Source: Candidatus Eiseniibacteriota bacterium (lineage in GTDB: Bacteria > Desulfobacterota > Binatia > UBA9968). Taken from it: 55,428 nucleotides of DNA. The DNA lies in assembly GCA_035559295.1 (NCBI GenBank), contig DATMBL010000011.1:1-55428 (forward strand). The letters are read 5' to 3'. This document shows positions 35,329 to 55,428 of this stretch, in pieces (the first letter of the stretch is position 1; every line of letters starts with the position of its first letter). The position numbers and the translations under genes are program-made. The notes below the pieces were generated by a model. That model searched no databases and was not told the DNA's origin. It saw nothing but the letters and a program-made list of their open reading frames with translations.

Positions 35329-35389
35329 GTCGTTCGGCGGTCGGTTAGTTCCTCAGCTCTAATGGATATTCACAGCATGTGAACCCGGG

Positions 35390-35929
35390 ATGATCCTGCT
35401 GGACGTTAGTGTGACTGCTTTCACGAGTTTCGTGGCGCTGTACGACGTAAGCGAGCGAAGAATTCCAAACTGGCTTATTCTCACGGGCGTGACGGCAGCA
35501 ATCATCATTAACCTCCCGAAGGGAATCCACGGACTGTCGCAGAGCGTCCTCGGGTTTGCCATTGGTGTCAGTCTGCTCGTCATTCCTTTTGCGCTCGGTT
35601 GGCTCGGTGCTGGTGACGTTAAAGCCTTTGCAGTGATAGGCGCTTTGTTGGGGCCGGCCTGGCTCCCCCGAATCGCCTTCTACACTGCCGTTGTAGCCGG
35701 CCTGATCGGGGCTGGCTATGTGGTTGTAAATCGGCTCCACCTTCAGGGTTTTAAAGTAATGTGGACGGATTTTCGGCTTGCAATAGCAAGCTTTGGCCAC
35801 ATTTTTCCAGAACATGTCACGACAAGCCAGGCCAAACAGCGTCATTACATGCCATGGGCCGTCGCGCTCGGCGCTGGCACCATAATCGCTTACTATCTGG
35901 ACCCTCAAGGCCGCTGGGCCGGCTTTTAG
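35390..35929 (+). CDS. cpaA: Prepilin peptidase CpaA/TadV (A24 family)
   Basis: This polytopic 179-aa ORF has 'YDVSERRIPNWL' and 'LGAGDVKAF', the two catalytic Asp regions. Confidence 0.85.
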   Translation: MILLDVSVTAFTSFVALYDVSERRIPNWLILTGVTAAIIINLPKGIHGLSQSVLGFAIGVSLLVIPFALGWLGAGDVKAFAVIGALLGPAWLPRIAFYTAVVAGLIGAGYVVVNRLHLQGFKVMWTDFRLAIASFGHIFPEHVTTSQAKQRHYMPWAVALGAGTIIAYYLDPQGRWAGF

Positions 35930-35995
35930 AAAATTTAGAAACGCGTTGTTCAGCTCCGAACGCGTCTGGAACATTCCGACGGGAAGGGGAGGCCT

Positions 35996-36820: not shown

Positions 36821-36837
36821 CGGAAGCGGAGGTGTAA

Positions 36838-38369: not shown

Positions 38370-38420
38370 GCTGACAGGAGGGAGATGGAGTATTGAACGC
38401 CTCAATCGCACCGGGCCCGC

Positions 38421-39641: not shown

Positions 39642-39651
39642 GGATGCCTAG

Positions 39652-41043: not shown

Positions 41044-42014
41044 GCCTCCTTTTAATCAGTGTATTCTCTTTTCTGGCGGCGGCATCGTTGATCGTCATCA
41101 TTGTCATGTTACCGATGGCCGTCCAAGATTCGCCGCAGGCGCGAATTCGGCGCCGACTAACGACGATTGGGCGTATGAGTTTCGCCTCCCGCTCGGATAT
41201 TCAAAATCTCCTAAAGAGTTCGGTTTACAGCGATGTCCCGCTAATTCATGCGTTGTTGTCGCGTGTCCAGTTGGCTCGCCGGGTCGATTTGCTTCTTGAA
41301 CGGGCGAACGTGGACATGTCGGTTGGAACTTTTCTCTTGTGCTCGGGAGGGGCGGGTGCGCTTGTCGCGTTTCTTATGCTCGTGATCGGACAACCCGGCT
41401 GGATCGCCGCGGTTATCGGCGTAGTTGCGGCAGTATGCCCTTACTTTTATTTGCAGTACGTCGTGTGGAAGCGGTTGCGACGGTTCCTGGAACAGATGCC
41501 GGACGGCCTCGACATGATCAGCCAGAGCCTGCAGGCAGGACTGGGATTGACTCAGGCGATGGTCTTCGTCTCCAAGGAAATGCCGGATCCGATGGGAACG
41601 GAATTCTCGGTCTTTATCGAAGAGGTCAATCTCGGATTGCCTTTGGCGGATGCCCTGAAGAAGTTTGAAGAACGGATTGCGCTTCCCGAAGTGCGTTTGT
41701 TCAACACGGCGCTTTTAGTTCAAAGGGAGGTAGGTGGTAGTCTGGCGGAGCTGCTGAACAAGTTAGCGGACATCATTCGGGATCGTTTCCGTATCGAGCG
41801 GCTGATCAAGAGCCTCACGGGTCAGAACCGAATGAGCGCGTGGGTCGTTTGTTCCGTCCCGCCGTTTCTCGCAGTTTTTATGTTCATGCGCGAACGAGAA
41901 ATGATGGATATGATGATGAGCGATCCCGCCGGGCGAGGGCTGCTCGCGGCGGCGCTCGTCTTGGAGATCATAGGTATAGTGGTGTTTCGTAAGCTGATCA
42001 AAATCCATATCTGA
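41040..42014 (+). CDS. tadB: Tad platform protein TadB
   Basis: It is a T2SF-like polytopic protein. Its start overlaps the cpaF stop by 4 nt. Confidence 0.88.
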
Positions 42015-42021
42015 GCGGTTT

Positions 42022-42954
42022 ATGGAAATCGTCATCGCGTTCGGCGTCTTTTGCCTCGTATTTGGGATTCTCTATTTTACCCTGGTCTCCAGAACTCCCG
42101 TATCCGAGGAAGCGATCCAACGAAGATTAGAAACGATTGCGGCACAACCCAAAACCACGAGGCGCATACGGCTCCATTCGTCCGACGAGACAAGCTTTTG
42201 GGAACGTATCGCGGAGTTCTTCATCGGCGAAAAAGAGTTGATGCCGGCGTCTTTCTCTCATGTGGGCCGGATGCTGCATCAAGCCGGGTACCGAGGTGAG
42301 AGATCGATCCGGGTGTTTTGGGGCCTTAGAATTTTCCTCTGTCTCGCCTTGGGATTCGGCGGCTTGCTGGTGTCGTTCGTGTCAAAGGCCAGCCTTCAGG
42401 ATGTCCTCATGCTCGGGGGCGTCGGCGGACTTTTCGGGTACTACTTTCCGTACCTTGTGGTTCGCCGAAAGGCCCAAGCACGAACGCTGGAGATGCGCGA
42501 AACCCTGCCGGACACGCTGGATTTGATTGTCGTTTGCGTCGAGGCCGGTATGGGTGTGGACGCGGCTCTTAACCGCGTCGCCACAGAACAAACGCAGCAG
42601 GGACTTGCGATAGGAGAAGAGCTGCTGCTCACGACCAAGGAGATGCAGGCCGGGGCCGTCCGCAAAGAGGCTTTGATGCGACTGGCCGACAGGGTTGGGA
42701 TCGAGGAATTACGGGGTCTGATTACGTTTCTCACGCAGACCGAAGAACTTGGCGGAAGCATTGCGCGCTCGCTGCGCGTTTATGCGGCCACGATGCGCGA
42801 TAAGCGGAGCCAGGCGGCCGAAGAAGCGGCGCGTAAGGTGGTTATCAAGCTGATCTTCCCGCTCGTTTTCTTTATCCTGCCAGCGATTTTCATCCTTATC
42901 CTGGGACCGGCCGGCCTCAGTATCATGAGAGCCCTTTCCAATCCGTTGAACTAG
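42022..42954 (+). CDS. tadC: Tad platform protein TadC
   Basis: It is a T2SF-like polytopic protein paralogous to TadB ('LPDTLDLIVVCVEAGMG'). Confidence 0.88.
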   Translation: MEIVIAFGVFCLVFGILYFTLVSRTPVSEEAIQRRLETIAAQPKTTRRIRLHSSDETSFWERIAEFFIGEKELMPASFSHVGRMLHQAGYRGERSIRVFWGLRIFLCLALGFGGLLVSFVSKASLQDVLMLGGVGGLFGYYFPYLVVRRKAQARTLEMRETLPDTLDLIVVCVEAGMGVDAALNRVATEQTQQGLAIGEELLLTTKEMQAGAVRKEALMRLADRVGIEELRGLITFLTQTEELGGSIARSLRVYAATMRDKRSQAAEEAARKVVIKLIFPLVFFILPAIFILILGPAGLSIMRALSNPLN

Positions 42955-42962
42955 GATCCGGC

Positions 42963-43361
42963 ATGCCGGTCATTAACCTCACCAAGAAAACCTGGTTGGC
43001 GACTAAAGTGCGGAAGGCGGACAGTTTTCTGACGCGGCTCATAGGGTTGCTTAAACGGACGCAACTCGGTCCGGAAGAGGCTCTTTGGCTTACGCCGAGC
43101 AAAGGGATCCACACGATCGGCATGAAGTTTCCTATCGACGTGGTGTTTCTGGACAAGAACAATATCGCTGTGGCCACCGTGTCCGATCTTGCTCCGAACC
43201 GCGTAACGGGCCTGCACTGGAAAGGACAAAGCGTACTGGAACTGCCGAAAGGAACCCTCCACAAATCGCGCACGGAAGTCGGTGACCAGCTCGAGATCTC
43301 GTTTGTCGAATCGCTCGCGGTAGGCGAGTTAAAGGACAACCGGTTAAGTCAACTCGGCTGA
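42963..43361 (+). CDS. DUF192 domain protein
   Basis: 'FLTRLIGLLKRTQLGPEEALWLTPSKGIHTIGMKFPIDVVFLDKNN' matches the DUF192/COG1430 pattern. It starts 8 nt after tadC. Confidence 0.8.
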   Translation: MPVINLTKKTWLATKVRKADSFLTRLIGLLKRTQLGPEEALWLTPSKGIHTIGMKFPIDVVFLDKNNIAVATVSDLAPNRVTGLHWKGQSVLELPKGTLHKSRTEVGDQLEISFVESLAVGELKDNRLSQLG

Positions 43362-43586
43362 GTATATCTTTTTACGCCTTCTGGCCGCTCTTTCGAAACG
43401 ATCATTGAGTTCAAGCCAAGTCAATCGCCTTGGCCGCAGGATCTGACCTATGTGCGATCGGTCTCCGGGTAAGCTGTGGCTTGGCTTTCACAAGCGAGAG
43501 GCATAGTCTAAGGACAACCAAGCGGCTGTAAATACCGTAAGTCGTGGCGTCGGGTTCGTTGATCTGTCAACGAATGCATAGCGCGT

Positions 43587-44516
43587 TTGCGGTGTGCTTT
43601 TGCCATGTTCGCTATGTCGCATCCGTTTCTCGCAACACTTGTCGAGGCGCAAAACCCCGACGGCGGTTGGGGCGCGGTAAGGGGGAGGCGGAGCAATACC
43701 GAGGCGACCGCGCTGGCGGTGATGGCGCTTAAAGCTGCAGGCGATCCAGAGAGCGCTTCAAACTTGCGACTAGGGCTGGATTGGTTGGCCACCCGCCAGA
43801 ATCCTGACGGGAGCTGGCCGGTGATCGACTCAGGAAGCGGTGGATCGTGGATGACTGCCCTCGCCATACTCGCGCTCTCGCAGTTCTCCGGTTTCGAGCG
43901 GCAGGCCATGAGCGGCGGCCAGTGGGCGCTAGAACACGAAGGCAGAAGGTACAGCCGGTTGCTGAAGCTCTGGATCACCATAACCGGGCAGAAAAAGAAT
44001 CTGCATCTGAATCCCGATTTGAAAGGTTGGGCCTGGAGCGACGGCGCTTTCAGTTGGGTGGAGCCAACGAGTTACTTCGTGTTGGCGCTAAAAAAAATCC
44101 GTCCGCATCTCGAAGGCACCAGGGTTGCAGAGCGCATTCGGCAAGGAGAGCTGCTGATTTACGATCGCATGTGTAGCGGCGGCGGCTGGAATTATGGCAA
44201 TGCCAGAGTGCTGGGAGAGGCGCTCTGGCCCTATCCAGACGTCACGGCGATCGCCCTGATCGCGCTTCAGGACCATCGAGACAGCGAAGCTAATCAACTC
44301 AGCGCTCGAGCCTTACAGGGGATGTTGGAGAGGGTCGATTCCGGTTTGGCTTTGAGTCTCGGAACGCTCTCCCTCGCGCTTTACGGCCAGGATGTGACGA
44401 AGCTCAGAGCGCGCTTGGCCGCCGCCTTCCAGCGGACCAGGTTTCTCGGCGAAACCAAAACATTCGCGTTATCGTTGCTGGCGATGCACGATGGCGAAAG
44501 ATTGCTACGGGTGTGA
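43587..44516 (+). CDS. Prenyltransferase / squalene-cyclase-repeat (alpha/alpha-toroid) protein
   Basis: It has repeated 'QNPDGGWG', 'RQNPDGSWP' and 'GGGWNYGN' motifs. No signal peptide is evident. The start is uncertain (TTG 43587, ATG 43605 or 43614). Confidence 0.65.
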   Translation: MRCAFAMFAMSHPFLATLVEAQNPDGGWGAVRGRRSNTEATALAVMALKAAGDPESASNLRLGLDWLATRQNPDGSWPVIDSGSGGSWMTALAILALSQFSGFERQAMSGGQWALEHEGRRYSRLLKLWITITGQKKNLHLNPDLKGWAWSDGAFSWVEPTSYFVLALKKIRPHLEGTRVAERIRQGELLIYDRMCSGGGWNYGNARVLGEALWPYPDVTAIALIALQDHRDSEANQLSARALQGMLERVDSGLALSLGTLSLALYGQDVTKLRARLAAAFQRTRFLGETKTFALSLLAMHDGERLLRV

Positions 44517-44519
44517 TCG

Positions 44520-45506
44520 GTGCTGACTCGAAGAGACTTTCTTCGCTCCTCCGCCGCTTTGTCCCTGGCGCCGTTGTCGGGCAGCTGCGCCGGTTCGCCG
44601 CGTTGGACTCGAGAGGCGTACCGCAAACCCCGCTCATCCCGAGTGGCGATCTTGCGCGCTAACGCTTACGATGACAGACTCGTGGACCTGTTGCTTCAAG
44701 GCCTCCGCTTGTTCAATTTCGAGTTAAACGGGAAAACGATCGTCTTAAAGCCCAACCTCGTCGAGTTCGATCCCACCGGCGTTATCAACACTCACTCCCG
44801 CCTCATTGCCGCCGCGATCGAGGCTTTCCGGATCGCAGGCGCGCGCGAAGTGCTGGTGGCCGAAGGCCCCGGCCATCATCGAGACAACGAGCACCTGTTA
44901 CTCGCTTCGGGCTTGTATTCGGTTCTGCGCGACCAGCGGACGCGCTATATCGATCTCAACTACGATGATCTTCGCTTGGTTCGCCTGCGAAGCGCGTTCA
45001 CGAACTTTCGGCAGCTCTATCTGCCGGAGACGTTGCACCGAGCCGACCTCCTGGTCTCGATGCCGAAGCTCAAAACGCATCACTGGGCCGGTGTGACGTT
45101 GTCGCTAAAAAATATGTTCGGGATCGTTCCGGGCTCGGTGTACGGGTGGCCGAAAAACCCGCTACACTGGGCGGGTATCCACAATAGCATACTCGACATT
45201 AACAGCAGCCTGCCGCTCCCTCAGTTTGCCATCATCGACGGAATCGTCGGCATGGAAGGGAATGGACCATTGCAAGGAGAGGCAAAACCGGCCGGTGTTC
45301 TGGTGCTGGGCAATGACCTCGTGGCAGCGGACGCCACTGCGGCTCGGCTCATGTCGATCGACCCCGGGAGGGTTGAGTATCTCAGGGGAGCCGACGAGTT
45401 CCTGGGAAATATCCAGTATGAAAGAATCGAGCAGATCGGCGAGCAACTCGACCGGTTACGGCAGGATTTTCGCGTGATCGAAAGCTTTCGCTACCTGAAA
45501 GTCTGA
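44520..45506 (+). CDS. DUF362 domain protein with twin-arginine signal
   Basis: It has the Tat motif 'LTRRDFLRSSAAL' and a DUF362-like 'IVLKPNLV...GPGHH...MPKLKTH'. A GTG start lies 3 nt after the previous stop. Confidence 0.7.
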   Translation: MLTRRDFLRSSAALSLAPLSGSCAGSPRWTREAYRKPRSSRVAILRANAYDDRLVDLLLQGLRLFNFELNGKTIVLKPNLVEFDPTGVINTHSRLIAAAIEAFRIAGAREVLVAEGPGHHRDNEHLLLASGLYSVLRDQRTRYIDLNYDDLRLVRLRSAFTNFRQLYLPETLHRADLLVSMPKLKTHHWAGVTLSLKNMFGIVPGSVYGWPKNPLHWAGIHNSILDINSSLPLPQFAIIDGIVGMEGNGPLQGEAKPAGVLVLGNDLVAADATAARLMSIDPGRVEYLRGADEFLGNIQYERIEQIGEQLDRLRQDFRVIESFRYLKV

Positions 45507-45528
45507 TTCGTCCCCGACGCCGCAACCA

Positions 45529-45630
45529 AAAAGATAGGATATCTCGCGCAAAGCCCGCAAAGATCGCCAAGTTTTCGGAGAAAAGAATTATACTCCTTGG
45601 CGCTCTTGGCGCGAGAAAGTCCTATCTTTT
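45529..45630. repeat. Roughly 100-nt palindromic intergenic element between convergent genes
   Basis: The terminal inverted repeats are AAAAGATAGGAtaTCTCGCGC and GCGCGAGAaagTCCTATCTTTT. The inner arms, 'gcaaagatcgccaag' and 'cttggcgctcttggc', are partially complementary. Confidence 0.55.
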
Positions 45631-45679
45631 CACTTCTCAGTCCTCGATCGTCGGGTTTCGTTTCGCGGTCAACGTTCCT

Positions 45680-47101
45680 TTACCCGGCTTGGTCGTCGGG
45701 TGGTATCAGGAGCTTCTGGCCGACATAAATGTAGTGCGGGTTCTTCACGACGTCGCGATTTGCCTCGTAAATCTTTTCCCACTTGTAAACGGAATTGTAG
45801 AAGCGCTGGGCTATCCTGCTGAGAGTGTCGCCGGGTTTGACGATATAGAGCTCGGAACCGGACGACGCCGGCGCGGTTTTGACGGTGGCCGGAGTCACCT
45901 CGGCTTTTTCTGCAGGGCTTCGGGCCGGAGCTTTGGCTTCGAGCGGCGGGGTCGGTTTGGCTTCCGTCGGCGCCTTGGTGCTTGCCGTCGCCGGTGGGGC
46001 AGGCGGCGGCGATGCAGCGGGCGGCGCGCTGGGCTCGCTCCGCGGCGCTCGGGCAACGGCTTGAGTCTTATACAGCCGATCGACGAAGCCTGACGTATCC
46101 AACTCCTTCACGAACGTCAGATCAACGAACTGCTCGGGGCGGGCCGCGCGCGCGGCCGGATCCTTGGTGCCCAGTTCGCGGAGCATGATCTGCAAACCTT
46201 TGAGCGTGGGATACGGCTTTTCTGGAACCAGGGTGAGCATGATCGACTCATACGTCTCGTCGAGCACGTCTTTGTCATCGGTGCGCAAGTATTTCGTGAG
46301 AATTTCGATGGTTTCTCTCCGGTGCGTCTTGGCGTAATGAATCCCCTCGACGTACGCCCGCATAAAATCGCGCACCAGTTCCGGCTTCGATTTGATCAGC
46401 GACCTGGTCGTTGCGATCCCGGTATGCTGGTACTCGAGTCCGAGCATCTGAAGATCCGCGAGCATCGGAAAACCCGCTTTTTTCGCTCTCAACGTGGTGG
46501 GCGGCGACAGCATGGCCGCGTTGAGCTTTCCTCCTTCGAGGGCGGAAAGGAGCGCGGGCACGTTTCCCAGTTGGAGAATCGTCACGTCCTTGTTCGGCTC
46601 CAGGCCATACTTTTCGAGCGCGTAACGCATGGCAAAGTCGGTCGAGGAGCCGAAGCGGGTGACTCCCACCGTCTTACCTTTGAGCTGATCGGGCCTGCTG
46701 ATGGTCTTGTCCGTGTACAGTTGAAAGATCAACGTATTGACCACCCCCGCAATCATCACCGTGTCGGCGCCCCGCAGGTTGGCTTGCATGACGGCCGCGC
46801 CGGCCATATGAGCGAAGGAAATCTCACCGGAGATCAACGACTGCGCTGCGGTTGTTCCGGATTCGATCAGAATCGGTTGCACGTCTAAACCGTACTTTCT
46901 GAAGAATCCCTTTTCTACCGTGACCCAAAGAGGCGCGTTGTTTCCAGAGATAGAACTATACGCCACGTTCACTTTTTGCAGCGCTGCGCCGCCGGGCTTT
47001 TCCGCCGCCGCCGCCCCGGACGGCGCAGCAACCGCCGCGAGCCCGAGCAACAGAACGGCGACAACCGAAAACGGTTTCATGGCGATATGCATCGGCTTCA
47101 T
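45680..47101 (-). CDS. NMT1/SsuA-type periplasmic substrate-binding protein fused to a C-terminal LysM domain
   Basis: It has a signal peptide and an SBP core ('VNVAYSSISGNNAPLWV...GKTVGVTRFGSSTDF'). A Pro/Ala-rich linker is followed by LysM 'YIVKPGDTLSRIAQRFYNSVYKWEKIYEANRDVVKNPHYIYVGQKLLIP'. Confidence 0.8.
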   Translation of the reverse strand: MKPMHIAMKPFSVVAVLLLGLAAVAAPSGAAAAEKPGGAALQKVNVAYSSISGNNAPLWVTVEKGFFRKYGLDVQPILIESGTTAAQSLISGEISFAHMAGAAVMQANLRGADTVMIAGVVNTLIFQLYTDKTISRPDQLKGKTVGVTRFGSSTDFAMRYALEKYGLEPNKDVTILQLGNVPALLSALEGGKLNAAMLSPPTTLRAKKAGFPMLADLQMLGLEYQHTGIATTRSLIKSKPELVRDFMRAYVEGIHYAKTHRRETIEILTKYLRTDDKDVLDETYESIMLTLVPEKPYPTLKGLQIMLRELGTKDPAARAARPEQFVDLTFVKELDTSGFVDRLYKTQAVARAPRSEPSAPPAASPPPAPPATASTKAPTEAKPTPPLEAKAPARSPAEKAEVTPATVKTAPASSGSELYIVKPGDTLSRIAQRFYNSVYKWEKIYEANRDVVKNPHYIYVGQKLLIPPDDQAG

Positions 47102-47131
47102 ATGTGGTCTCCCTTACCGACTCGAAGAGTT

Positions 47132-47917
47132 CTAGGCCTTGTTCAACCGGCTCATCGCGGCTTTAAGACTTGCACGCATTCTTTCAAGCGACCTGGCAAG
47201 CTCCCCCACCTCATCGTTTGACTGCACCGGCACGACCGTATCCAGCCGACCCCGGCTGATCTCATCGGCAGTGGCTTTAAGGTCTAGTATAGGTCGAATG
47301 GTTTTGCCAGCGATCGCCATCGAAAGTGCCACACCGATCACGAGGCAAAGAGCGACCGCTGCGACGATAGGAAGGATCGTGGCCCGAACTTCGCTGTGAA
47401 CGGACTCGGCCCACAAACCAACGTGAACGGCGCCCAACTGACCGTCCAGAAGCGGAACCCGGGTTTCATACGCAGATTGACCGCGCAGCGAGGTCGTCCG
47501 CGAGCTGGCGACCCGCTGGTTGCGCGTCAATGAAACATCTTTGAGCTCGGCCGGAAAGGGCTGCAGGCTGGACGCGATCACGTCACCTTTCGGACCGATT
47601 ATGAACGCGTAGGCTACGCCGTCGAGTCGGCCATACTTTGCGATGAGCGCATCGAGTTCCAAGCTGTTCTTTCGCGCCACGTGACCAGCAGCGGCGTCGC
47701 TCAGGTTGGTTGCGATGGCAGAAGCTCTCAGCTCGACCTGCCGCCGAAGCGCGCTGTCCGTTAGATAATACACGACCCCTATAACGAAAGATCCCAAAAC
47801 GAGCAAGAGCGCGCTAAAGCTGGCACTGATTTTCCAACGCAGGCCCGCCGCCTTCCACGGAACGGCGGCTAGGCCGCCGACCTTGACACCATCCATTGAC
47901 ATCGACTCCTGAGACAT
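47132..47917 (-). CDS. TM-sensor-TM-HAMP protein without output domain (paralog 2)
   Basis: It has the same architecture and alignable sequence as 29590-30330 ('AIATNLSDAAAG', 'DEVGELARSLERMRASLKAAM'). It ends just after the HAMP. Confidence 0.75.
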   Translation of the reverse strand: MSQESMSMDGVKVGGLAAVPWKAAGLRWKISASFSALLLVLGSFVIGVVYYLTDSALRRQVELRASAIATNLSDAAAGHVARKNSLELDALIAKYGRLDGVAYAFIIGPKGDVIASSLQPFPAELKDVSLTRNQRVASSRTTSLRGQSAYETRVPLLDGQLGAVHVGLWAESVHSEVRATILPIVAAVALCLVIGVALSMAIAGKTIRPILDLKATADEISRGRLDTVVPVQSNDEVGELARSLERMRASLKAAMSRLNKA

Positions 47918-47941
47918 GCGTCCTCCCGCTCAGGGCGTAGT

Positions 47942-48736
47942 TCAAAACTTCTTGAACCCTGAAATCTCGTGCGCCACAGCTTCTTGAAATTTCGCTCTCG
48001 ATTTCGCGTCCGGGATCTCTCTACAGATGAGAGCGATGAGTTCGTCGAACTTAGCTTCGGGAAAACTCGTTTGCGATTCGCCCAGAGCTTCGATTTGGTC
48101 GCGGACAACCACCGGCGCCATCGGACCGATGATTTCCGTGAGGAGCACGCTCATGCGGTTAAACAAGGCAGGCGTCACGAGCTCGGACGCCGGCTTGACT
48201 GGCGGTGCGACCACTTCCACAAGCCCGGCTTTGTGCAAATTGAATATGACTTTGGCGGTATAGGCGTAAGGCACTCGCAGGATTTCCGCGATCTCTTGGA
48301 CCGTGCGGACACCGTCGATTTTGGTGAGAACGCGCCAGCCGACATGCGGGACCGTTACCGGACCACTTTGCTCGTCCGCCAGCTCGGCGAGCCGAAAAAC
48401 CGTTTTGCCGGAGGGGATGACTTCGAGAATCGTTTCCCACTCGCGACTCATGGCTTTCACTTCTTCGAGGATCTGCGTCGAATGCTTTCTGATCGTTGCC
48501 GTCGGCGCGGAGCCGTTGGGAAGGAGAGTGAAGCTGCCCTCGCCCCAGGTGACGGGGTAGAGAAGCGCCTTTTCGCCGTCTCCTATGGGACACGTGGCGT
48601 GGATGATCTCTCCGCCGCTAAGGTAGATCTCGACGGTTTCCTTTCCCCGCGACAGTTTGAGAACCCCTGATTTCTTGCCGCTCGTCGCGAGCAGCAAAAG
48701 ATCATTCAAACTGATTTGCGAAAGATTTCCTTGCAT
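47942..48736 (-). CDS. DUF4388 (PatA-N/PATAN-like) domain protein with a winged-helix-like middle region
   Basis: The N-terminus 'GNLSQISLNDLLLLATSGKKSGVLKLSRGKETVEIYLSGGEIIHA' matches the DUF4388 pattern. The middle region 'RTVQEIAEILRVPYAYTAKVIFNLHKAGLVEVV' is wHTH-like. Confidence 0.7.
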   Translation of the reverse strand: MQGNLSQISLNDLLLLATSGKKSGVLKLSRGKETVEIYLSGGEIIHATCPIGDGEKALLYPVTWGEGSFTLLPNGSAPTATIRKHSTQILEEVKAMSREWETILEVIPSGKTVFRLAELADEQSGPVTVPHVGWRVLTKIDGVRTVQEIAEILRVPYAYTAKVIFNLHKAGLVEVVAPPVKPASELVTPALFNRMSVLLTEIIGPMAPVVVRDQIEALGESQTSFPEAKFDELIALICREIPDAKSRAKFQEAVAHEISGFKKF

Positions 48737-48759
48737 CGACTTTGCCCACCTGAGTTGAG

Positions 48760-49083
48760 CTAGCGTTCTTCCGAACTCCTCCGCGGCGATACGGTTTGCA
48801 CCTTTCTCACGTGTTCGGTCAGCTCATCATGTCCGTTCAGAGTGACTTTCAGGGTTTTTATGACCGCGAGGTTCTTGCTGATATTGACCATCTGCTCGAG
48901 CGTCGATTTGATCTGACTCTGGAGCAGATCCAGTTCCTCGGTCGAAATTCCCTGAAGTTGGCTTTGCAGCTCATCGTACAGACGAGTAATGCTGTCGATT
49001 TGCCCCAAGGATTGGGTCTTGTGCGTTATCTCCTCGTACAGCCGCGAGATGTCTTCCGTGAGATGTTGCAGCTCGTTTTTCAT
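48760..49083 (-). CDS. Small coiled-coil hypothetical protein
   Basis: This is a 107-aa heptad-rich ORF. Its ATG lies 1 nt after the upstream stop. The track ORF's N-terminal extension overlaps the upstream gene. Confidence 0.5.
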   Translation of the reverse strand: MKNELQHLTEDISRLYEEITHKTQSLGQIDSITRLYDELQSQLQGISTEELDLLQSQIKSTLEQMVNISKNLAVIKTLKVTLNGHDELTEHVRKVQTVSPRRSSEER

Positions 49084-49084
49084 A

Positions 49085-50338
49085 TCAGTTGCCACCCTTT
49101 TCAACGGATTTGAGGTGCTTGGTTGCGTACGGATTGTTCGCCGTTCTGCGGAAGCCCGATGGTTCAGCGTTGGCCGGGTGATCGCTTTTCGTCGCCGGCT
49201 CGACGCTGCTCGGTTGGAGACTCGACTGAACCGGCTGGGGGGAAGATGCCGGAGTGTCGTCGGATGATCGCCAGTAGAAATAGGCCGCGGCAATGACGAG
49301 GACGAGAAGCGCGCAAACCGCAACAATGCCGGCGCGGGTTCTCTTGGCGGAGTGATCCGAGTAGAGGTCGTATTCGCCGTAATCTTTAATGAGCTTTTTG
49401 AGCCGCTGGTCGAGATCGCCGTCTTTGGGCGTCGCTACGGTGGGTTTCAGCGGCGCGACGTTTTCAACCAGGGGGAACTCGGGTTCCGCGGGCCCGGGCG
49501 CGTCTGGCAGCTCGTCGGTCGGCTGGGACGGTTCGGTGGCCGCCTTGGAAACAGGAATGATGAACTCGCCGTAATCCTTGATGAGGTCGTTGAGCAACCT
49601 CTGATCGAACTCGAATCGTGACTCGTCCGCACTTTCCGGCAGAGGCCTCGCTGCGTCATGCTTCTGTTGCGCATCGGAGACCGTTACAACCGGGCTCGCG
49701 GTTTGCGCTTCTTCGTTCCCCTGAGGGCGCCGTCCGGAATCTCGATCAGTTACGGTAGGTGCGGGGTCGAGACGGGTTGTACGGGCTGTCTCCGGAGAGC
49801 TCGTAGGTCGAGATTCGAACGCCAGGGCCGTGCTCTCAACGGATCCTGCCCGAGAAGCGGGAGGTTGCCGTTCGAGTGGAGAATCCGCGCCTGACTCGGA
49901 AGCAGGTAAATTTTGGGAGCGGTTGTGCTTCGGCAGGGACTGCTGGGTGGCTTCGCGCGTGTCGTTGGCTGACTTGGGCGGCCTCGGAAACATAATGAGC
50001 TTACGCAAGTTAGTGAGCGCTTGTAACTGCGTGGGCGGAGGCGCGGCCAAGAGATCATCAGCGCTCGCGACCACGTTATCGGCCTTCGCGCGCTCGGCGC
50101 AGAGCACTTGATCTCTGATTCGAGAAACATTCTCCAGCGCGTGTTGCAGCTCTCGCAGCCGGGTTGCAAGAGTTACAAGCTTCTTTTCAGTTTCCTCAAC
50201 GTCGGCGATCGTGACACGCTCGAGTTTGTCCCGAAGCCGCTCGACCGCCCCCACGACATCGCCGGCCGCGTTCAGCGTAGCGTTTGGAGGGACCGCCACG
50301 GATTGAGCCCTCTCGTCTTCCTTGTGCGCCGATAACAT
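49085..50338 (-). CDS. Pro/Ser-rich single-pass membrane protein with N-terminal coiled coil and a duplicated DQRL..LIKDYGE(F/Y) motif
   Basis: I chose the ATG at 50338 because the TTG at 50413 lies inside the -12 box of the promoter candidate. A TM 'AGIVAVCALLVLVIAAAYFYW' lies near the C-terminus. Confidence 0.55.
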   Translation of the reverse strand: MLSAHKEDERAQSVAVPPNATLNAAGDVVGAVERLRDKLERVTIADVEETEKKLVTLATRLRELQHALENVSRIRDQVLCAERAKADNVVASADDLLAAPPPTQLQALTNLRKLIMFPRPPKSANDTREATQQSLPKHNRSQNLPASESGADSPLERQPPASRAGSVESTALAFESRPTSSPETARTTRLDPAPTVTDRDSGRRPQGNEEAQTASPVVTVSDAQQKHDAARPLPESADESRFEFDQRLLNDLIKDYGEFIIPVSKAATEPSQPTDELPDAPGPAEPEFPLVENVAPLKPTVATPKDGDLDQRLKKLIKDYGEYDLYSDHSAKRTRAGIVAVCALLVLVIAAAYFYWRSSDDTPASSPQPVQSSLQPSSVEPATKSDHPANAEPSGFRRTANNPYATKHLKSVEKGGN

Positions 50339-50409
50339 TTGAGGTTTGTTTGTGCGCGAGCCTCGATTCCGAATTCCCGGTTGAACGAAATTACAAAGGC
50401 AGCGGAAAA

Positions 50410-50424
50410 GCAAAAGCGCTGCCA
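50410..50424 (-). promoter_or_regulatory. Sigma-54 promoter candidate for the five-gene module
   Basis: The minus strand reads TGGCAG-CGCTT-TTGC, near-consensus with exact spacing. It lies in the 185-nt gap after the protease gene. A 7-bp palindrome GAAAACT-n4-AGTTTTC is at 50438-50455. Confidence 0.55.
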
Positions 50425-50598
50425 GTGTGCGGGTTTCGAAAACTGTCGAGTTTTCAGCAACATCAGGACAGGGTTCTCCCTTAATTGCTAGATAATTCCC
50501 CCAGTTCTGTTCATCTTGAACAAAATTGTACGTGGATGGCTCGAACCGCTCGTTGAAACCAATAACGGCTGATGCGGGGCGAGAATGGAACGCGACAC

Positions 50599-51357
50599 TC
50601 AGCGCGGAGCAAGTGTGATGATCTGGTTCTTCGAGTCGATCGATAGATGAAAGCGACTCAAGAAATCCAGACCCAAAAGTCCATCGACGCGCGCCGTCGG
50701 CATGAGGTCATGAACGGTCACCGTAAGATTATGGACCTCCGCTTCTCCGACCTTAAGCGAGCCGACGCGCGCCATCGGCATCGACATGGGACCGCTGACC
50801 GTCATTGCAACGATCCGCGGTCCGTCGGTTCTCAAGCCCAGATCCTTAGCGATGCGCCGAGAGATCATCGTCGTTGTCGCGCCCGTATCCAGAGCGAGAA
50901 GCGCTTTGATCCGGCGATTTAGCGTCACGGGCACGATGACCGACGTGCCGTTCATTTTAACCGGAATCCGAATGGCGTTCTCGGACTCGGCCGCCACCGA
51001 AGCGGAATGTGCCATGGCAAGCTCGGTGACGGTCGGCGGCGGCACGGGCCTGAAGGCCTTTTCCACATCCGCGATCGTGTCGGCGTCCGCTTTCTTGACC
51101 CAACCGATCACGCCGCGACGTGATTCTATCAAGTACCAGCGCAATCCTTGCGGTCCTATACTTTCCGCGATCGGCGTTGCCGACTCGCCGCGCTTGAGAA
51201 AGCCCGCGGGAGGCGACGATTCATCGGGCCCGAGATGGATAACGATGCTGCCCGCGTCAGCTCCGGTTTGTATGACGAGCGGTTGGCTTTCCGCGTCACT
51301 CGCCAATAGGCACGATGCAAGGCAGGCAACGTACAAAGGGCGGATAAGCTTCGGCAC
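50599..51357 (-). CDS. Retropepsin-like (clan AA) aspartic protease with an N-terminal SH3b-like domain
   Basis: It has a signal and possible lipobox 'CLASC' and an SH3-like 'LRWYLIESRRGVIGWVKK'. It also has the catalytic 'LLALDTGATTTMIS' and 'GLLGLDFLSRF'. Confidence 0.8.
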   Translation of the reverse strand: MPKLIRPLYVACLASCLLASDAESQPLVIQTGADAGSIVIHLGPDESSPPAGFLKRGESATPIAESIGPQGLRWYLIESRRGVIGWVKKADADTIADVEKAFRPVPPPTVTELAMAHSASVAAESENAIRIPVKMNGTSVIVPVTLNRRIKALLALDTGATTTMISRRIAKDLGLRTDGPRIVAMTVSGPMSMPMARVGSLKVGEAEVHNLTVTVHDLMPTARVDGLLGLDFLSRFHLSIDSKNQIITLAPR

Positions 51358-51375
51358 GGCGTCAGTCCTGCGCTC

Positions 51376-52656
51376 CTAAGGCGCGATCGCAAACTTCTCG
51401 ATCTTGCGGTAGAGAGTGCGTGTTGATATGCCGAGAGCTTCGGCGGCTTTGGCTTTGTTCCCGTTCGTTTGGCGTAGCGCCTCCTCGATCAGGCTCTTTT
51501 CACCTTCTTCGATATTGCGAATCACTTTCGGGCCGATTTCCTCCCGGTGACCGGTGGCGTACTGCTGAAGATGCATCGGTAAATCGGCGACCGCGATGTA
51601 TTCACCGTCGGAAACCATGACTGCGCTTTCGACGACGCTCTTCAGCTCGCGAATGTTTCCCGGCCACGGATAGTTTAGCAGAAGGGTCTTCGCGGAACTG
51701 CTGAGCTTCTTCAAGGGCCTGCCGTACTGCTGGCACGTTTGATACATGAAATTTGCCAGGAGCAAGATGATGTCTTCTTTGCGCTCGCGAAGTGGCGGAA
51801 GAATAATCCGCGCGCTGTTCAGCCGAAAGTAGAGATCTTTTCTAAAGCTGTTGTTTTGAATCGCCTGATCCAGCTCCTTGTTGGTTGCGGCAATGATTCG
51901 CACGTCGCTGGTCCTGGGCGTCGAGTCGCCGACCTTGTAGTACTGGCGCGTCTCGAGAAAGCGCAAAAGCTTCAATTGGATCGCCGGCGCGAGGTCGCCG
52001 ATCTCGTCGAGAAAAAGGGTTCCTCCTTCCGCGGCTTCGATCAGTCCCTTTTTGTTCCGGTCGGCGCCGGTGAATGCTCCTCGGACGTAGCCAAAAAGCT
52101 CGCTCTCAACGAGCGTTTCAGGAATCGCGGTCATATTGCAGGCGACAAACGGCTTGTCCGCGCGCGGGCCGTGCGTGTGAATATAATGCGCCATAACCTC
52201 TTTGCCGGTGCCGGTTTCGCCGGTGATCAAGACCGTGATGTCGTGCATCGCGTAGCGGTTGGCGAGGTTCAACACTCCGTGAAACTGCGGCGTCTCGCCG
52301 ATGATCATCGGCGCCTGCACCGAATCCCCCGAGCGGCTTTCCTCTTGCGCAGACGGAACGTAGCCCAAAAGCCCGTTCAGCTGATGAATTCTCTCCGGGT
52401 GGTAGCAGACGAACGCCAGCTCGACCGGGTTTTCGCCCGCGCGTTCGATCAGGCTCTCCCACACCCGACCGCGGCAGATCGAAACATCGGCGAATACGAA
52501 CTTGATCTGGTCCGTCGGGAAAGCGGAAAAGACGCGCTCGACTTCGTCGAGGCTGCGGGTCAGGTGTACTGCGAGTCCGCGCGCCTCGAGCAGTTTGGTC
52601 AACGCCGTCGGCGATGACTTGAGCGCATGGACGACGAGAGCGAGTGGCTGCGGCAT
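51376..52656 (-). CDS. Sigma-54-dependent transcriptional activator with an atypical N-terminal receiver-like domain
   Basis: 'GETGTGKE', 'GAFTGA', and an HTH 'NKAKAAEALGISTRTLYRKI'. The N-domain lacks the usual acidic DD pocket at its start. Confidence 0.9.
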   Translation of the reverse strand: MPQPLALVVHALKSSPTALTKLLEARGLAVHLTRSLDEVERVFSAFPTDQIKFVFADVSICRGRVWESLIERAGENPVELAFVCYHPERIHQLNGLLGYVPSAQEESRSGDSVQAPMIIGETPQFHGVLNLANRYAMHDITVLITGETGTGKEVMAHYIHTHGPRADKPFVACNMTAIPETLVESELFGYVRGAFTGADRNKKGLIEAAEGGTLFLDEIGDLAPAIQLKLLRFLETRQYYKVGDSTPRTSDVRIIAATNKELDQAIQNNSFRKDLYFRLNSARIILPPLRERKEDIILLLANFMYQTCQQYGRPLKKLSSSAKTLLLNYPWPGNIRELKSVVESAVMVSDGEYIAVADLPMHLQQYATGHREEIGPKVIRNIEEGEKSLIEEALRQTNGNKAKAAEALGISTRTLYRKIEKFAIAP

Positions 52657-52662
52657 CGCGAA

Positions 52663-54126
52663 TCAGTCTCGCGGCGAAGACGGTAAAATCACCATGTTCT
52701 CGAGGGCATCCGCCAATAGCTGGCGCGTAATCCGCGGGGGTGTGCCGGCATAGTGACACGCCGCGATCACGTGTTCGGCGATAAACCTGGGATGGAAGCC
52801 GGCAAAGGGAAGTTTATATTTGACGTAAAAAGAATTCAGCAGATAGGCCATGATTTCCTCGGAGAACTCCAGACCGTACGAGGCGCAGATGCGCTGGAAA
52901 ATTTCGCGGAACTCGCGGACGGTGGGCGGTTCGATCTTGAGCTTGTAGTGAACGCGGCGGAGTTGCGCGGGATCCATCAACTCTTCAGGGGGAAAATTGG
53001 TGGCAAAAATCACCAGCTGATCGAATAACAATTCGATTTTCTTCCCGGTGTGCAGCGTCAGATAGTCGATCTTGCGTTCGAGAGGGAAAATCCACCGGTT
53101 GAGCAGATCGTTCGGTCGAACCCTTTGGCGCCCGAAGTCATCGATAATAAAAACACCGCCTATGGCTTTCATGTGCAGGGGCGCTTCGTAATACTTCGAA
53201 TAGGGATCGAAGTCGAGATCGAGCATTTCCAACGTGAGCTCACCGCCGGTAATGATCGCCGGCCGTTTGCATCGTACCCAGCGCGGGTCATATTCCGCCG
53301 GAGGAAGGAACATCGGATGCGGGGCGGCGCTCGCGCGATTGACGCCGCCGGGCGCCGGCATGTGAACCGCGGGATCGAAGAACTTGATGATTTGCCCGTC
53401 ATCGACAATCGCATGAGGAACGTAAACCGGCTGCTCGAAGGCCTCGGCAAGGCCCTGAGCGATCGACGTCTTTCCGTTTCCCGCCGCTCCGTAGATCAAA
53501 ATCGCTCTACCGGAGTTGGCCGCGGGCCCGAGCTTTCGGATGATGTCATCGGAAAGGACCAGGTGCGACAGCGCCTTGCGGAGCTTGTCCATGCCGATGA
53601 TTTCGTTCGTGATCGTCTGCTTCTGCACCTGCATCTGGTAAGACGCGAGCGAAACCGGCGCCGCGCCAATGTATTCGCAGCGCCGTAGCGCCTCGGCAGC
53701 GCGCGCCTTACCGGCGCTCGTCAGAGCGTAACGCATGATCGTGTGATTGTTTTCCAGCGGGCCTTTGATCTCGACCAGAGCGTCCTTCTTGGCGAACGTC
53801 AGCAGTTCTTCGACAACCGCGCGCGTGAGTTTGATTTGGTCCGAGAGCTCCGGAATCGTTTGCAGGCCGGAAACGTAGATGATGCGCAACAGGAGATTGG
53901 TCAGAAAGTTGAGCTCCAGGCCGGTGTCGGCGACGGTCTTCGGAATTGCCGGCGGCTCTTGGAGGATCGCGTCGAGCTTTTCCCGCGTCACGTAACCGAG
54001 AGCAACTAAATTGTCGCCGAGCCGCCCGCCGGCGATCTTCTGTTGTTGGAGAACCCGGTCGAGTTGCTCTCTCGTGATGACTTCTTTGGCTAACAAAAGT
54101 TCGCCTAGCGGCATAGTCGGGTCCAA
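52663..54126 (-). CDS. MshEN (T2SSE_N)-domain AAA-type ATPase
   Basis: The N-terminus has tandem 24-residue MshEN-like motifs separated by 5 residues. It has Walker A 'YGAAGNGKTS' and Walker B 'VFIIDDFGRQ'. There is a 6-nt gap to the downstream activator gene. Confidence 0.8.
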   Translation of the reverse strand: MDPTMPLGELLLAKEVITREQLDRVLQQQKIAGGRLGDNLVALGYVTREKLDAILQEPPAIPKTVADTGLELNFLTNLLLRIIYVSGLQTIPELSDQIKLTRAVVEELLTFAKKDALVEIKGPLENNHTIMRYALTSAGKARAAEALRRCEYIGAAPVSLASYQMQVQKQTITNEIIGMDKLRKALSHLVLSDDIIRKLGPAANSGRAILIYGAAGNGKTSIAQGLAEAFEQPVYVPHAIVDDGQIIKFFDPAVHMPAPGGVNRASAAPHPMFLPPAEYDPRWVRCKRPAIITGGELTLEMLDLDFDPYSKYYEAPLHMKAIGGVFIIDDFGRQRVRPNDLLNRWIFPLERKIDYLTLHTGKKIELLFDQLVIFATNFPPEELMDPAQLRRVHYKLKIEPPTVREFREIFQRICASYGLEFSEEIMAYLLNSFYVKYKLPFAGFHPRFIAEHVIAACHYAGTPPRITRQLLADALENMVILPSSPRD

Positions 54127-54245
54127 ACTTTTGATTGTTTTTGGGAGTTCGTGCGTTTATATTGACCAAAAAACTGTTTCATTATAGGTCGCACCGGAGT
54201 TGTGTCAAGGAAAGTTAAACCGCAACCGAGAGGTCACTAACAATT

Positions 54246-55428
54246 ATGCCTAGTTATCGAGCTTATTTGACAGTGTTAATTAACGCTCTACTGGTTTGGG
54301 CTTCCGGTTGTAGTACCCATGAGGACAGCGCCCGGCCAGGTGGTTCCGGGCTGATTGTGACGCCGCCGCATTACTACAGTACGACCAGGGCCCGATCCCT
54401 GGGTTCTCGCTACAAGCAGAATCTCGAGCGGATCGTTGAGAGTATCGTACGCAGTCCTGTCACGTCGGGCCTGCAGTTCGCCAACAACATCGCCGCGAAT
54501 GGAGGGATCGGGTTTTTCACCCATTCCGCAACGCGCGTTCCCGACGAGCGATTTTTGGAAGTGGTGCTCGGGGTGCCCGACACGTTCGATGCGAGTGAGC
54601 AGCATCGTTTGAAAACCCAGCGGGTGTTTGCCAAGTACGGTCCTGAATTGCTAACGATCCTGGCAAGCGATGCCGAGATCGCGAAAGATCCGGAAGTCGC
54701 GGGGTACGGCGTCAACCTGTCATGGCGCAGCATCGCGCGGGAGAGCGCAGGGCCGCGAGTGATACTGGAGCGCGCGGTCATTTATCTATCCAAAGATACC
54801 GTCCAACATTTTCTGCGGCGTGAGATTACCGAGGCGCAGCTACTCGAACGCTCGGCGACATTCGTCGCGCGCGGCGACGGCATCCTGCAACTCGTGTCCG
54901 GGCGTGCCGAAGCCCCCGCGGGCGATCGTCGTGCCGCGATCGCCGAGGAAACGATTTCGGAAAACAGCCTGCCCCAAGCCGCAGCGGTCGGGGAAAACCG
55001 GCCGTCGCCGGAGCAAGCGAGGTTATCGAAGGGAAGCCCGCCGGTTGCGGTCGAGACCACGACGGAAACGCATCGAGCGGTGGCGGAAAAGCCCCGCGTT
55101 CCCGAACCCGCTCCAGTGAAAAAGCCGCCGCTTGGCACCGCACGCGCGGGCGGCGCCAGCGCCGAAGTGACGCCAGACGTAGAACGCTCGCCCGGCCGCG
55201 AACGCACAGAGTCTGCGAGCGATCTTCGGGCGGAGCAGTCGGATCGACGGAAGGCAAGCCCCGATCACGGTCAGGTAACCCAAAAATCACTCGAGCCACG
55301 GCCCAGGCCGGGAGAGGCTCGCGAGTCGGAATCTTCCAAGCCTAACCACGAGGCGGTAATTTCTCGCCCCGCAGGCCGGGTTTCAGCGGCCGAGAAGACC
55401 GCAGTCCCCGACACGCCCGCGCCGGTGG
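54246..55428 (+). CDS. Lipoprotein, 3'-truncated by the window end (absent from the ORF track because it has no stop)
   Basis: I translated it by hand from the ATG at 54246 and found no stop through 55428. It has a signal and lipobox 'LLVWASGC'. A structured roughly 210-aa part is followed by a Pro/Ala/Glu/Arg-rich low-complexity tail. Confidence 0.6.
   Translation, partial: MPSYRAYLTVLINALLVWASGCSTHEDSARPGGSGLIVTPPHYYSTTRARSLGSRYKQNLERIVESIVRSPVTSGLQFANNIAANGGIGFFTHSATRVPDERFLEVVLGVPDTFDASEQHRLKTQRVFAKYGPELLTILASDAEIAKDPEVAGYGVNLSWRSIARESAGPRVILERAVIYLSKDTVQHFLRREITEAQLLERSATFVARGDGILQLVSGRAEAPAGDRRAAIAEETISENSLPQAAAVGENRPSPEQARLSKGSPPVAVETTTETHRAVAEKPRVPEPAPVKKPPLGTARAGGASAEVTPDVERSPGRERTESASDLRAEQSDRRKASPDHGQVTQKSLEPRPRPGEARESESSKPNHEAVISRPAGRVSAAEKTAVPDTPAPV

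Follow-up and report, generated by a model that had tools for sequence, protein, structure and literature searches.

We analyzed a 55-kb window of DNA (55,428 nt; contig DATMBL010000011.1 of assembly GCA_035559295.1) assigned to the Binatia, in which five closely spaced genes, here called G1 to G5, all lie on the minus strand. These genes are the sigma-54-regulated half of a conserved eight-gene cluster of Binatia, the other half of which, U3-U2-U1, is driven by sigma-70, and the cluster is set beside genes for a Tad pilus and for cyclic di-GMP (c-di-GMP) signaling. Two of the five genes, G3 and G4, are a bacterial counterpart of the archaeal pair Af1502-Af1503, with the STAC domain fused to PATAN and a winged helix and with the gene order reversed. 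The best explanation for the operon, to which we give slightly better than an even chance, is that G1 to G5, within their eight-gene cluster, place a pilus-type or MshEN ATPase under the control of a HAMP receptor that acts through STAC and PATAN.

The original prediction for this locus, made from the sequence and its open reading frames (ORFs) without database searches, was a five-gene envelope signaling module. The five genes, their spacing, and the domains proposed for them agree with the coordinates and with the Pfam and NCBIfam profiles that we used for domain assignment. The predicted co-occurrence in other genomes is also seen: we took relatives of G3 from Candidatus Binatia metagenome-assembled genomes and compared the window proteins with the fetched loci by tblastn, and the five genes form a conserved, co-oriented sigma-54 unit in approximately 40 Binatia loci. 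The module is not self-contained, as these genes are half of a cluster that also encodes a sigma-54 activator, an MshEN-AAA+ ATPase, and a protease. Coordinates given below for the eight-gene cluster and its control elements refer to the minus strand; for other features of the window, (+) or (-) is added where a strand is assigned.

G3 and G4 are a bacterial counterpart of Af1502 and Af1503

G3 (47942-48736, 264 aa) has three parts. Residues 1-116 (48389-48736) are a PATAN domain (PatA_N/DUF4388, PF14332), which matches the full length of the Pfam profile (E 1.1e-13) and is present in an AlphaFold2 model built from a 36-sequence alignment (mean model confidence, pLDDT, 78). Residues 134-176 (48209-48337) have the secondary structure of a winged helix in the model and are basic, with an isoelectric point (pI) of 9.4; sub-threshold matches to the helix-turn-helix (HTH) of TrmB, Rrf2, and NsrR cover residues 142-176. 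All three Binatia groups that carry the protein retain this winged helix, which is missing from the PATAN-STAC proteins of Nitrospirota. The remainder of the protein, residues 186-264 (47945-48181), is assigned to Pfam DUF8082 (PF26309). There was no match to a receiver (REC) domain in G3, the C-terminus of which consists of the winged helix and this last domain. The PATAN domain and the winged-helix-like middle had been recognized in the original prediction; the C-terminal domain, which is the key to the pair, had been overlooked.

Judging from sequence motifs and from the model, this C-terminus is an Af1502-type STAC domain, an assignment that ties the anonymous family DUF8082 to STAC. The model has four helices in residues 189-262, and a Foldseek search of the PDB matched them to Af1502 of Archaeoglobus fulgidus (5A1Q) with a probability of 0.98, a TM-score of 0.68, and a root mean square deviation of 2.6 A. 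The domain carries the motif IGPMA, with G204, P205, and A207 invariant, and LGPx(x)A between helices 1 and 2 is given as the hallmark of STAC in the account of PMC4834066. PF26309 is recorded for the relatives of G3 and for the Nitrospirota PATAN-STAC proteins, and equally for about 25 of the 82 clusters of the Af1502 family, A. fulgidus proteins included. Profile comparison of G3 STAC with Af1502 was weak but consistent (hhalign E 2.7e-4 to 4.9e-4); Af1502 itself behaves as a singleton in sequence searches, according to its authors' summary in PMC4834066. An older Pfam version, predating PF26309, had no match for the STAC region alone. Foldseek matches of the whole G3 model to SEA/GATOR1, MutL, and ParE were disregarded (probability ≤0.35, TM-score ≤0.24).

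G4 (47132-47917, 261 aa) is a receptor without an effector, arranged as transmembrane segment, sCache_3_2, transmembrane segment, and HAMP. Pfam finds only sCache_3_2 (approximately 47381-47758) and HAMP (47162-47314), and the sequence has two hydrophobic segments. The protein terminates at residue 261, 9 residues past HAMP, and its relatives are similarly short (257-275 aa). The top 16 PDB sequence matches of the G4 HAMP are all Af1503 HAMP constructs and chimeras (best E 3.6e-10). The core pair of G3 and G4 has no recognizable phosphotransfer domain.

As summarized in PMC4834066, Af1503 is an archaeal receptor with HAMP as its sole cytoplasmic part, and Af1502, translationally coupled to it, is the founding STAC domain, 68 residues long (Korycinski et al. 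2015 via PMC4834066). Because of the Foldseek match, the GPxA motif, the common family PF26309, and the Af1503-like HAMP, we regard G3-G4 as the bacterial counterpart of this pair. HAMP-only Af1503-like receptors that are genomically coupled to STAC proteins have already been described (PMC4834066), and the original statement that no described system resembles the locus is therefore wrong for G3 and G4. What is new is the PATAN-STAC fusion, its host range, its regulatory and pilus context, and two orphan families.

The G3-G4 pair persists outside the cluster

Of the eight genes, only G3 and G4 remain paired where the other six are absent, as is the case in two divergent groups of Binatia. Proteins of the first group (L042-L045) are 58 and 55% identical to G3 and G4, respectively, and those of the second (L023, L024, L047-L051) approximately 44 and 37%. 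The pairs stand in unrelated contexts, and their genes often overlap by 4 nt. Together with the STAC domain of G3 and the Af1503-like HAMP of G4, this persistence lends independent support to the predicted step from a HAMP relay to a DUF4388 adaptor.

A scan with the Af1503 HAMP sequence found the same arrangement in three Nitrospirota loci (L066, L067, and L075), where the gene for a 185-aa PATAN-STAC protein shares 4 nt with that for a Cache-HAMP-only receptor. The PATAN-STAC protein contains ..QIGPIGNKV.. and aligns with G3 STAC over 65 columns. Gene order in these loci (approximately 2475-8157) is PATAN-STAC, Cache-HAMP-only receptor, REC, CheW, and CheA; in L075 the REC protein has a C-terminal PATAN domain, and one extra REC gene stands before CheW.

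PATAN-like proteins neighbor the archaeal prototype too. In an Archaeoglobus locus (L054, 4380-5466 on the minus strand), genes for a 245-aa DUF2226 protein (Pfam DUF4388, E 3.4e-5) and a Roadblock/LC7 protein are convergent to the Af1502 homologue. The C-terminus of the DUF2226 protein showed no match to G3 STAC, and we found no mention of a link between this PATAN-like neighbor and Af1502 in the literature examined.

G1 to G5 appear to be one sigma-54 transcription unit

The remaining genes of the operon are G1 (49085-50338, 417 aa counted from the conserved ATG), G2 (48760-49083, 107 aa), and G5 (45680-47101, 473 aa). The intergenic gaps from G1/G2 to G4/G5 are 1, 23, 24, and 30 nt. Shine-Dalgarno-like sequences precede G2, G3, G4, and G5 but not G1, and no terminator-like sites were found inside G1-G5 on the operon strand. 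A long hairpin with a flanking A-run and U-run (45526-45631) lies between G5 and the last gene of the convergent Tad operon. It folds as RNA with -67 kcal/mol (z = -3.0), none of 200 shuffled sequences being equally stable, and is probably an intrinsic terminator that works in both directions and ends transcription of G1-G5.

Upstream of G1 is the promoter TGGCAGCGCTTTTGCT (50424-50409), with the -24 GG and -12 GC of sigma-54 promoters at canonical spacing. The near-consensus element of the original prediction is thus retained, and the same promoter was recovered in the loci of more than 30 relatives: TGGCA[AG]C-N3-TTTTGCT is found approximately 70 nt 5' of the conserved G1 ATG in essentially every orthologous locus (>30 Binatia loci). 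In an alignment of 37 upstream regions, an upstream activator site, GTACAATTTTGTTC-AAGAT-GAACAGAA (50505-50531), includes the dyad TGTTC-N5-GAACA (50508-50522), centered approximately 95 bp 5' of the -24 element. Each of 30 loci (798 kb in total) has exactly one copy of the dyad, always approximately 95-100 bp upstream of the -24 element. The full 17-nt motif of the site has no second exact match in the window, and we found no further copy of the motif beyond chance in the window and none in the 30 loci. The strict sigma-54 pattern occurs only 4 times across the window. Because this pattern is rare, is conserved before G1, and is preceded by a conserved dyad present once per locus, we consider the promoter to be beyond chance.

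The alignment contains two further conserved blocks. One is an A/T-rich block, GGAATTATCTAGCAATT (50483-50499), in the stretch that separates the activator site from the promoter; we tentatively read it as IHF-like, as it departs from the textbook consensus WATCAANNNNTTR at one position. The other is CTGAAAA. Apart from the activator site, the 37 aligned regions showed no conserved operator near the operon, and a search of 43000-55428 against Rfam found no RNA families. rpoN is not among the annotated genes of the window. Altogether, G1 to G5 appear to be a single transcription unit that runs from a sigma-54 promoter with its own activator site to the hairpin terminator, and support for this is as good as sequence alone permits.

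The other half of the cluster encodes an MshEN ATPase, a sigma-54 activator, and a protease

The order U3-U2-(U1)-G1-G2-G3-G4-G5 is kept in the approximately 40 Binatia loci, and on account of this synteny a chance gathering of genes was rejected. U3, U2, and U1 are served by a sigma-70-type promoter, TTGACA-16-TATAAT (54181-54208), that agrees with the consensus at 12 of 12 positions; of 31 orthologous loci, 30 have TTGACA-N16-TATAAT at a distance of 94-126 nt upstream of the U3 ATG. The leader between promoter and U3 start (54114-54208) has more conserved blocks, namely GAAACgGTTTTTTG, TATACC..GAATATAA, and AAAGACAA.

U3 (52663-54114) is a cytoplasmic AAA+ ATPase whose N-terminus carries the c-di-GMP-binding MshEN motif in tandem, LGELLLAKEVITREQLDRVLQQQ-KIAGG-RLGDNLVALGYVTREKLDAILQE. 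Its true start is the ATG at 54114 rather than the TTG at 54126 of the ORF list, and its orthologues begin with MAIG. The c-di-GMP motif is matched by NCBIfam NF053729 (E 1.7e-16); the closest PDB matches of U3 are the N-domains of MshE and PilB/PilF, and the MshEN region aligns to the N-domain of MshE (5HTL). Orthologues in the Binatia loci that carry U3 are syntenic and 61-78% identical. The middle region of U3 gave nothing credible against Pfam at E up to 5, and a single-sequence AlphaFold2 model was unusable (pLDDT 34.5).

U2 (51376-52656), syntenic in the orthologous loci, is a sigma-54 enhancer-binding protein with an AAA+ domain containing GAFTGA, a lid, and a Fis-type HTH (Pfam Sigma54_activat, E 1.6e-66; HTH_8, E 2.5e-15). 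Its N-terminal domain of 110 aa is atypical: there was no Pfam match to a receiver domain in U2, the N-terminus gave nothing credible against Pfam at E up to 5, and the likeness to a receiver in a profile comparison was weak (hhalign E 0.27). From its adjacency to, and conservation with, the operon, we presume that U2 binds the dyad and activates the G1-G5 promoter. U1 (50599-51357) is an exported, periplasmic protein that joins an SH3 domain to a retropepsin-like aspartic protease (clan AA, DTGA). Pfam identifies Asp_protease_2 (E 1.2e-17) and SH3_3, and the N-terminus reads as signal-peptide-like. U1 is syntenic yet missing in some orthologous loci.

The eight genes include no small GTPase and no Roadblock/LC7 gene by Pfam or NCBIfam, and on that ground a conservon or MglA-type module was rejected. 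Beyond the sigma-70 promoter, a divergent lipoprotein-like gene (MPSYRAYLTVLINALLVWASGCS...) occupies 54243-55428 (+) and runs past the end of the window; its product is 41% identical to a 713-aa protein in the same position in L002, a position that is taken by a 541-aa SPOR-domain protein in L084. In L084, small ORFs that include the remnant of an IS91-type transposase (6433-7583) separate U1 from G1.

G1 and G2 are lineage-restricted orphans, and G5 is accessory

G1 consists of a helical/coiled-coil N-terminus, a long and variable region rich in Pro and Ser, two copies of the short motif [FL]DQRL..LIKDYGE[FY], a single membrane segment, and approximately 60 aa of variable periplasmic tail. 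Orthologues are only 23-51% identical, and the parts conserved across 37 of them are limited to the N-terminus, the two motifs, and the membrane segment. Copy 1, FEFDQRLLNDLIKDYGEF (49562-49615, residues 242-259), is an island in the 37-sequence alignment, and copy 2, DLDQRLKKLIKDYGEYDLY (49361-49417, residues 308-326), ends approximately 10 residues before the membrane segment (49271-49333, residues 336-356), the single hydrophobic segment in a hydropathy scan. The duplicated motif and single membrane span of the original prediction are both confirmed here. The sequence KRTR before the segment places the N-terminus in the cytoplasm.

G2 is a 107-aa helical/coiled-coil protein and the best conserved member of the cluster (57-92% identity), its first 85 or so residues being the most conserved. 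A HMMER search of 1.84 billion representative proteins returned only 25 representatives of G2; apart from four marginal matches, all that was found were Binatia-type relatives. Within the reach of HMMER, G2 is therefore no divergent offshoot of an established family. Neither G1 nor G2 belongs to a family in Pfam or NCBIfam, and searches of G1 fragments and G2 against Pfam at E up to 5 gave nothing credible and no match to PspA_IM30. Both are orphans restricted to Binatia. They co-occur strictly with U1-U3 and are missing from all other PATAN-STAC/HAMP-only pairs, in Binatia and in Nitrospirota.

G5 is an exported protein with a solute-binding domain of the NMT1/SsuA/TauA type (approximately 46244-46978; Pfam and NCBIfam), followed by a Pro/Ala-rich linker and a C-terminal peptidoglycan-binding LysM domain (45701-45847). 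Its nearest solved structures are taurine- and nitrate-binding proteins and the LysM domains of Kbp and TsaP. TsaP is a LysM protein associated with the type IVa pilus secretin, and the match (E 7e-6) is probably generic LysM similarity. In L084 (11637-13053), G5 is called as two genes, one for NMT1 (384 aa) and one for LysM (92 aa), which may be a frameshift or a genuine split. G5 accompanies only some PATAN-STAC/HAMP-only pairs, most other pairs being without a binding protein, and is accessory.

The operon lies among Tad pilus and c-di-GMP genes

A complete Tad/Flp pilus operon (34967-45506 (+)) is tail-to-tail with G5. It encodes flp, a prepilin peptidase, RcpC, a secretin, TadZ (REC-ParA), TadA, TadB, TadC, a DUF192 protein, a prenyltransferase-like protein, and a Tat-signal DUF362 protein; the flp pilin MQLLKRLVAEEEGQGLVEYTLIV is at 35081-35275 (+), the prepilin peptidase at 35390-35929 (+), TadZ at 38421-39641 (+), and TadA at 39652-41043 (+). 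Approximately 115 nt before flp is a sigma-54-like element, TGGCATGGAAGCTGCT (34967 (+)). Another, TGGTATGTGTTTTGCT (34686-34671), is divergent from it and precedes a gene for a REC-GGDEF response-regulator diguanylate cyclase (region 33643-34686 (-), with a probable start at ATG 34602). Given that the activator site of G1 has no second copy, the sigma-54-like promoters of flp and REC-GGDEF probably use other activators.

In 10 other loci, and in L084 as well, the cluster also has Tad genes next to it. The 58%-identical pairs of L042-L045 adjoin genes for TadZ-like, REC-GGDEF, and GGDEF-EAL proteins, and the REC-GGDEF gene there is 71% identical to that of the window. No transporter genes were present in the cluster, in the Pfam-scanned flanking genes, or in the locus tables examined.

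The window encodes a second Cache-HAMP-only receptor (29554-30330 (+)), 45% identical to G4 and an orphan in that no PATAN-STAC gene adjoins it. Upstream are approximately 250 nt that are apparently non-coding and then a 549-aa membrane protein without a family (27656-29305). A dense regulatory island was also seen, in two stretches. That at 23237-27579 has REC-type sigma-54 activators at 23237-24943 (-) and 26194-27579 (+) and a PAS histidine kinase at 25037-26167, with a further strict sigma-54 pattern at 24758 (-); that at 30868-33640 has a GGDEF-EAL protein (30868-32181) and a histidine kinase (32465-33640). The absence of a kinase, cyclase, or chemoreceptor noted in the original prediction is correct within the five genes and does not extend to the window, which has REC-GGDEF, GGDEF-EAL, histidine kinases, and two more sigma-54 activators around the Tad operon.

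Proposed mechanism and alternatives

We propose that a periplasmic signal would reach the Cache domain of G4, either directly or through peptidoglycan-anchored G5, and would change the conformation of the G4 HAMP. The STAC domain of G3 would sense this change, as proposed for Af1502 with Af1503, and its readout would alter the binding of PATAN to a partner. The likeliest partner would be a pilus-type ATPase or an MshEN-type domain, candidates being TadA, TadZ, and U3. The type IV pilus motor of Synechocystis is an interaction partner of PATAN regulators, its ATPase PilB1 being bound by PixE, and fusions of PATAN to GspE_N exist (bioRxiv 10.1101/2021.06.11.447907); in Myxococcus, PATAN proteins are connected with type IV pilus motility. 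The output could be a response to an envelope or surface cue tied to the activity of the Tad pilus, possibly with autoregulation that depends on U3 and U2, as binding of PATAN to U3 would form a loop back onto U2 and the operon's own promoter. G1 might serve as a membrane anchor that displays two short linear motifs and G2 as a small coiled-coil protein, both being lineage-specific partners.

Several points weigh against this proposal. We infer every protein-protein contact in it, as well as the physiological output. Direct sequence likeness between G3 STAC and Af1502 is weak (hhalign probability 32-42%), a PDB profile search with full-length G3 gave nothing significant, and one with the C-terminal domain gave chance MIF matches only and not Af1502. 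Published evidence for binding of Af1502 to Af1503 was not found in the literature examined, and in CbrA, STAC docks on the transporter and not on HAMP (PMC13022988); the role of STAC domains is still called unclear (PMC4834066; PMC13022988). The basic winged helix of G3 could equally mean DNA binding. The mechanism has no place for G2, the best conserved of the eight proteins, nor does it account for U1 or for the atypical N-terminus of U2. Finally, the link to the Tad operon is convergent adjacency, not co-transcription.

Four other explanations account for less of the conserved context. In the chain of the original prediction, signals pass from G5 to G4 to G3 and then to G2 and G1, which form an end-point membrane or envelope scaffold. 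One promoter and one synteny common to all five genes, two conserved short motifs of G1 near the membrane, and the very strong constraint on G2, as expected of a protein with multiple partners, speak for this chain. Nevertheless, we think it unlikely: G1 and G2 are missing from every other PATAN-STAC/HAMP-only pair, and nothing supports them as targets of the adaptor; their strict co-occurrence with U1-U3 suggests that they may belong functionally to the regulator half; neither homology nor structure supports a scaffold role, and G5 is an accessory present with only some pairs. Another explanation is a feedback resembling that of the Psp system. In that system, PspA together with PspB/C restrains the activator PspF. 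Here, membrane-anchored G1 and coiled-coil G2 would restrain U2 until envelope signals sensed by G4/G5 release it. The cluster has the appropriate layout, namely a regulator expressed from a sigma-70 promoter, an effector operon with a sigma-54 promoter and a dedicated activator site, an activator without a recognizable receiver domain, and, as first products, a membrane protein with a helical stretch on its cytoplasmic side and a small protein that is also helical. However, there is no homology to PspA/IM30, PspB, or PspC, and the PATAN-STAC/HAMP-only pair, the MshEN ATPase, and the Tad neighborhood are left unexplained; we rate such feedback a little lower still than the scaffold chain.

It is just as improbable, in our estimation, that G3 is a membrane-tethered transcription factor whose winged helix binds DNA and which G4 captures and releases through STAC. 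The pI of the winged helix, its sub-threshold likeness to TrmB/Rrf2/NsrR, and its retention in all three Binatia groups are what such a factor would lead one to expect, but the Nitrospirota PATAN-STAC proteins lack the domain and keep the receptor pairing, the activator site is the only conserved operator seen near the operon, and DNA binding by PatA-type PATAN regulators has been argued to be unlikely (bioRxiv 10.1101/2021.06.11.447907). Least probable by a clear distance is the regulation of transport, the role originally proposed for STAC, in which G5 would serve a transporter encoded elsewhere and G3-G4 would tune it. The name STAC reflects an association with SLC5 transporters, and transport genes are frequent neighbors of Af1503-like receptors, as PMC4834066 summarizes; the docking of STAC in CbrA (PMC13022988) and the nature of G5 as an ABC-type binding protein point the same way. 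Against this, the cluster, flanks, and locus tables contain no transporter gene, a LysM anchor is atypical of ABC binding proteins, and most other pairs do without a binding protein.

Control of an ATPase through HAMP, STAC, and PATAN would have consequences beyond this locus. Af1503 is a much-studied structural model of HAMP signaling, with many solved HAMP constructs, and its family has no recognizable effector module. PATAN, for its part, is the one domain with experimental support for binding the motor ATPases of type IV pili, and the PATAN-STAC fusion adjoins an Af1503-like receptor in two bacterial phyla, near pilus, Che-like, and c-di-GMP genes. The path from HAMP to STAC to PATAN to a pilus ATPase is therefore a concrete and testable candidate for the missing output of Af1503. 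More tentatively, and with less than even confidence, we suggest that PATAN-STAC proteins and effector-less Cache-HAMP receptors could constitute an unrecognized, phosphorylation-independent mode of bacterial transmembrane signaling, in which STAC would be a universal reader of HAMP and PATAN would steer pilus motors. On this broader reading, the Af1503 receptor family would gain an output, and the Binatia version would be a self-regulating circuit of c-di-GMP, sigma-54, and Tad pilus with G1 and G2 as new partners. The five-gene set itself is restricted to an uncultured phylum, which makes its immediate biological reach modest.

Comparison with known systems

Several described systems share features with the cluster. 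In LuxP/LuxQ and TorT/TorS, as here, the gene for a periplasmic binding protein adjoins that for a membrane sensor; G5 differs in being LysM-anchored, G4 has a Cache domain of its own, and most related pairs can dispense with the binding protein. The likeness to Psp lies in separate promoters for the regulator and effector halves, an activator without a normal receiver, and first products that are small helical and membrane proteins; the sequences are unrelated, and the likeness is an analogy of logic only. With MshE and PilB/PilF, U3 has in common a tandem 24-residue MshEN motif (RLGxxLLxxGLIxxxxLxxxLxxQ) with a 5-residue spacer. U3, however, combines the motif with an unrelated AAA+ module instead of a secretion ATPase, and c-di-GMP binding is predicted.

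The SLC5-STAC-histidine kinase transceptors CbrA, CrbS, and RpuS resemble G3-G4 in that STAC is interposed between a sensing module in the membrane and an output in the cytoplasm. Whereas each of these is a single polypeptide with a transporter module and a histidine kinase output, in G3-G4 the HAMP receptor and the proposed PATAN output are separate proteins. The cyanobacterial PATAN-REC proteins of the PatA type, PixG, PixE, and LsiR, share with G3 the PATAN domain and nearby pilus genes, and the Nitrospirota pair precedes REC(-PATAN), CheW, and CheA, which are the same kinds of components as in the cyanobacterial systems. G3 has no REC, and its input would come from a HAMP receptor via STAC and not by phosphorylation; the pilus near it is of the Tad/Flp type, not type IVa.

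The closest relationship is to Af1503/Af1502. In both cases the receptor ends in HAMP, the HAMP of G4 being nearest to the Af1503 constructs; the partner is a four-helix STAC domain with GPxA that belongs to PF26309; and the genes are adjacent (24 nt apart for G3/G4), overlapping in relatives. In contrast to the archaeal pair, G3-G4 has a bacterial host (Binatia), and the STAC gene is upstream of the receptor rather than downstream. The stand-alone STAC protein of 60-90 aa is replaced by the C-terminal domain of a 264-aa PATAN/winged-helix protein; in an Archaeoglobus locus, the PATAN-like DUF2226 protein is encoded by a separate gene that is accompanied by a Roadblock gene and convergent to the Af1502 homologue. 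The sensor of G4 is a single Cache domain, and in place of transporter genes, G3-G4 is set among sigma-54, c-di-GMP, and Tad pilus genes.

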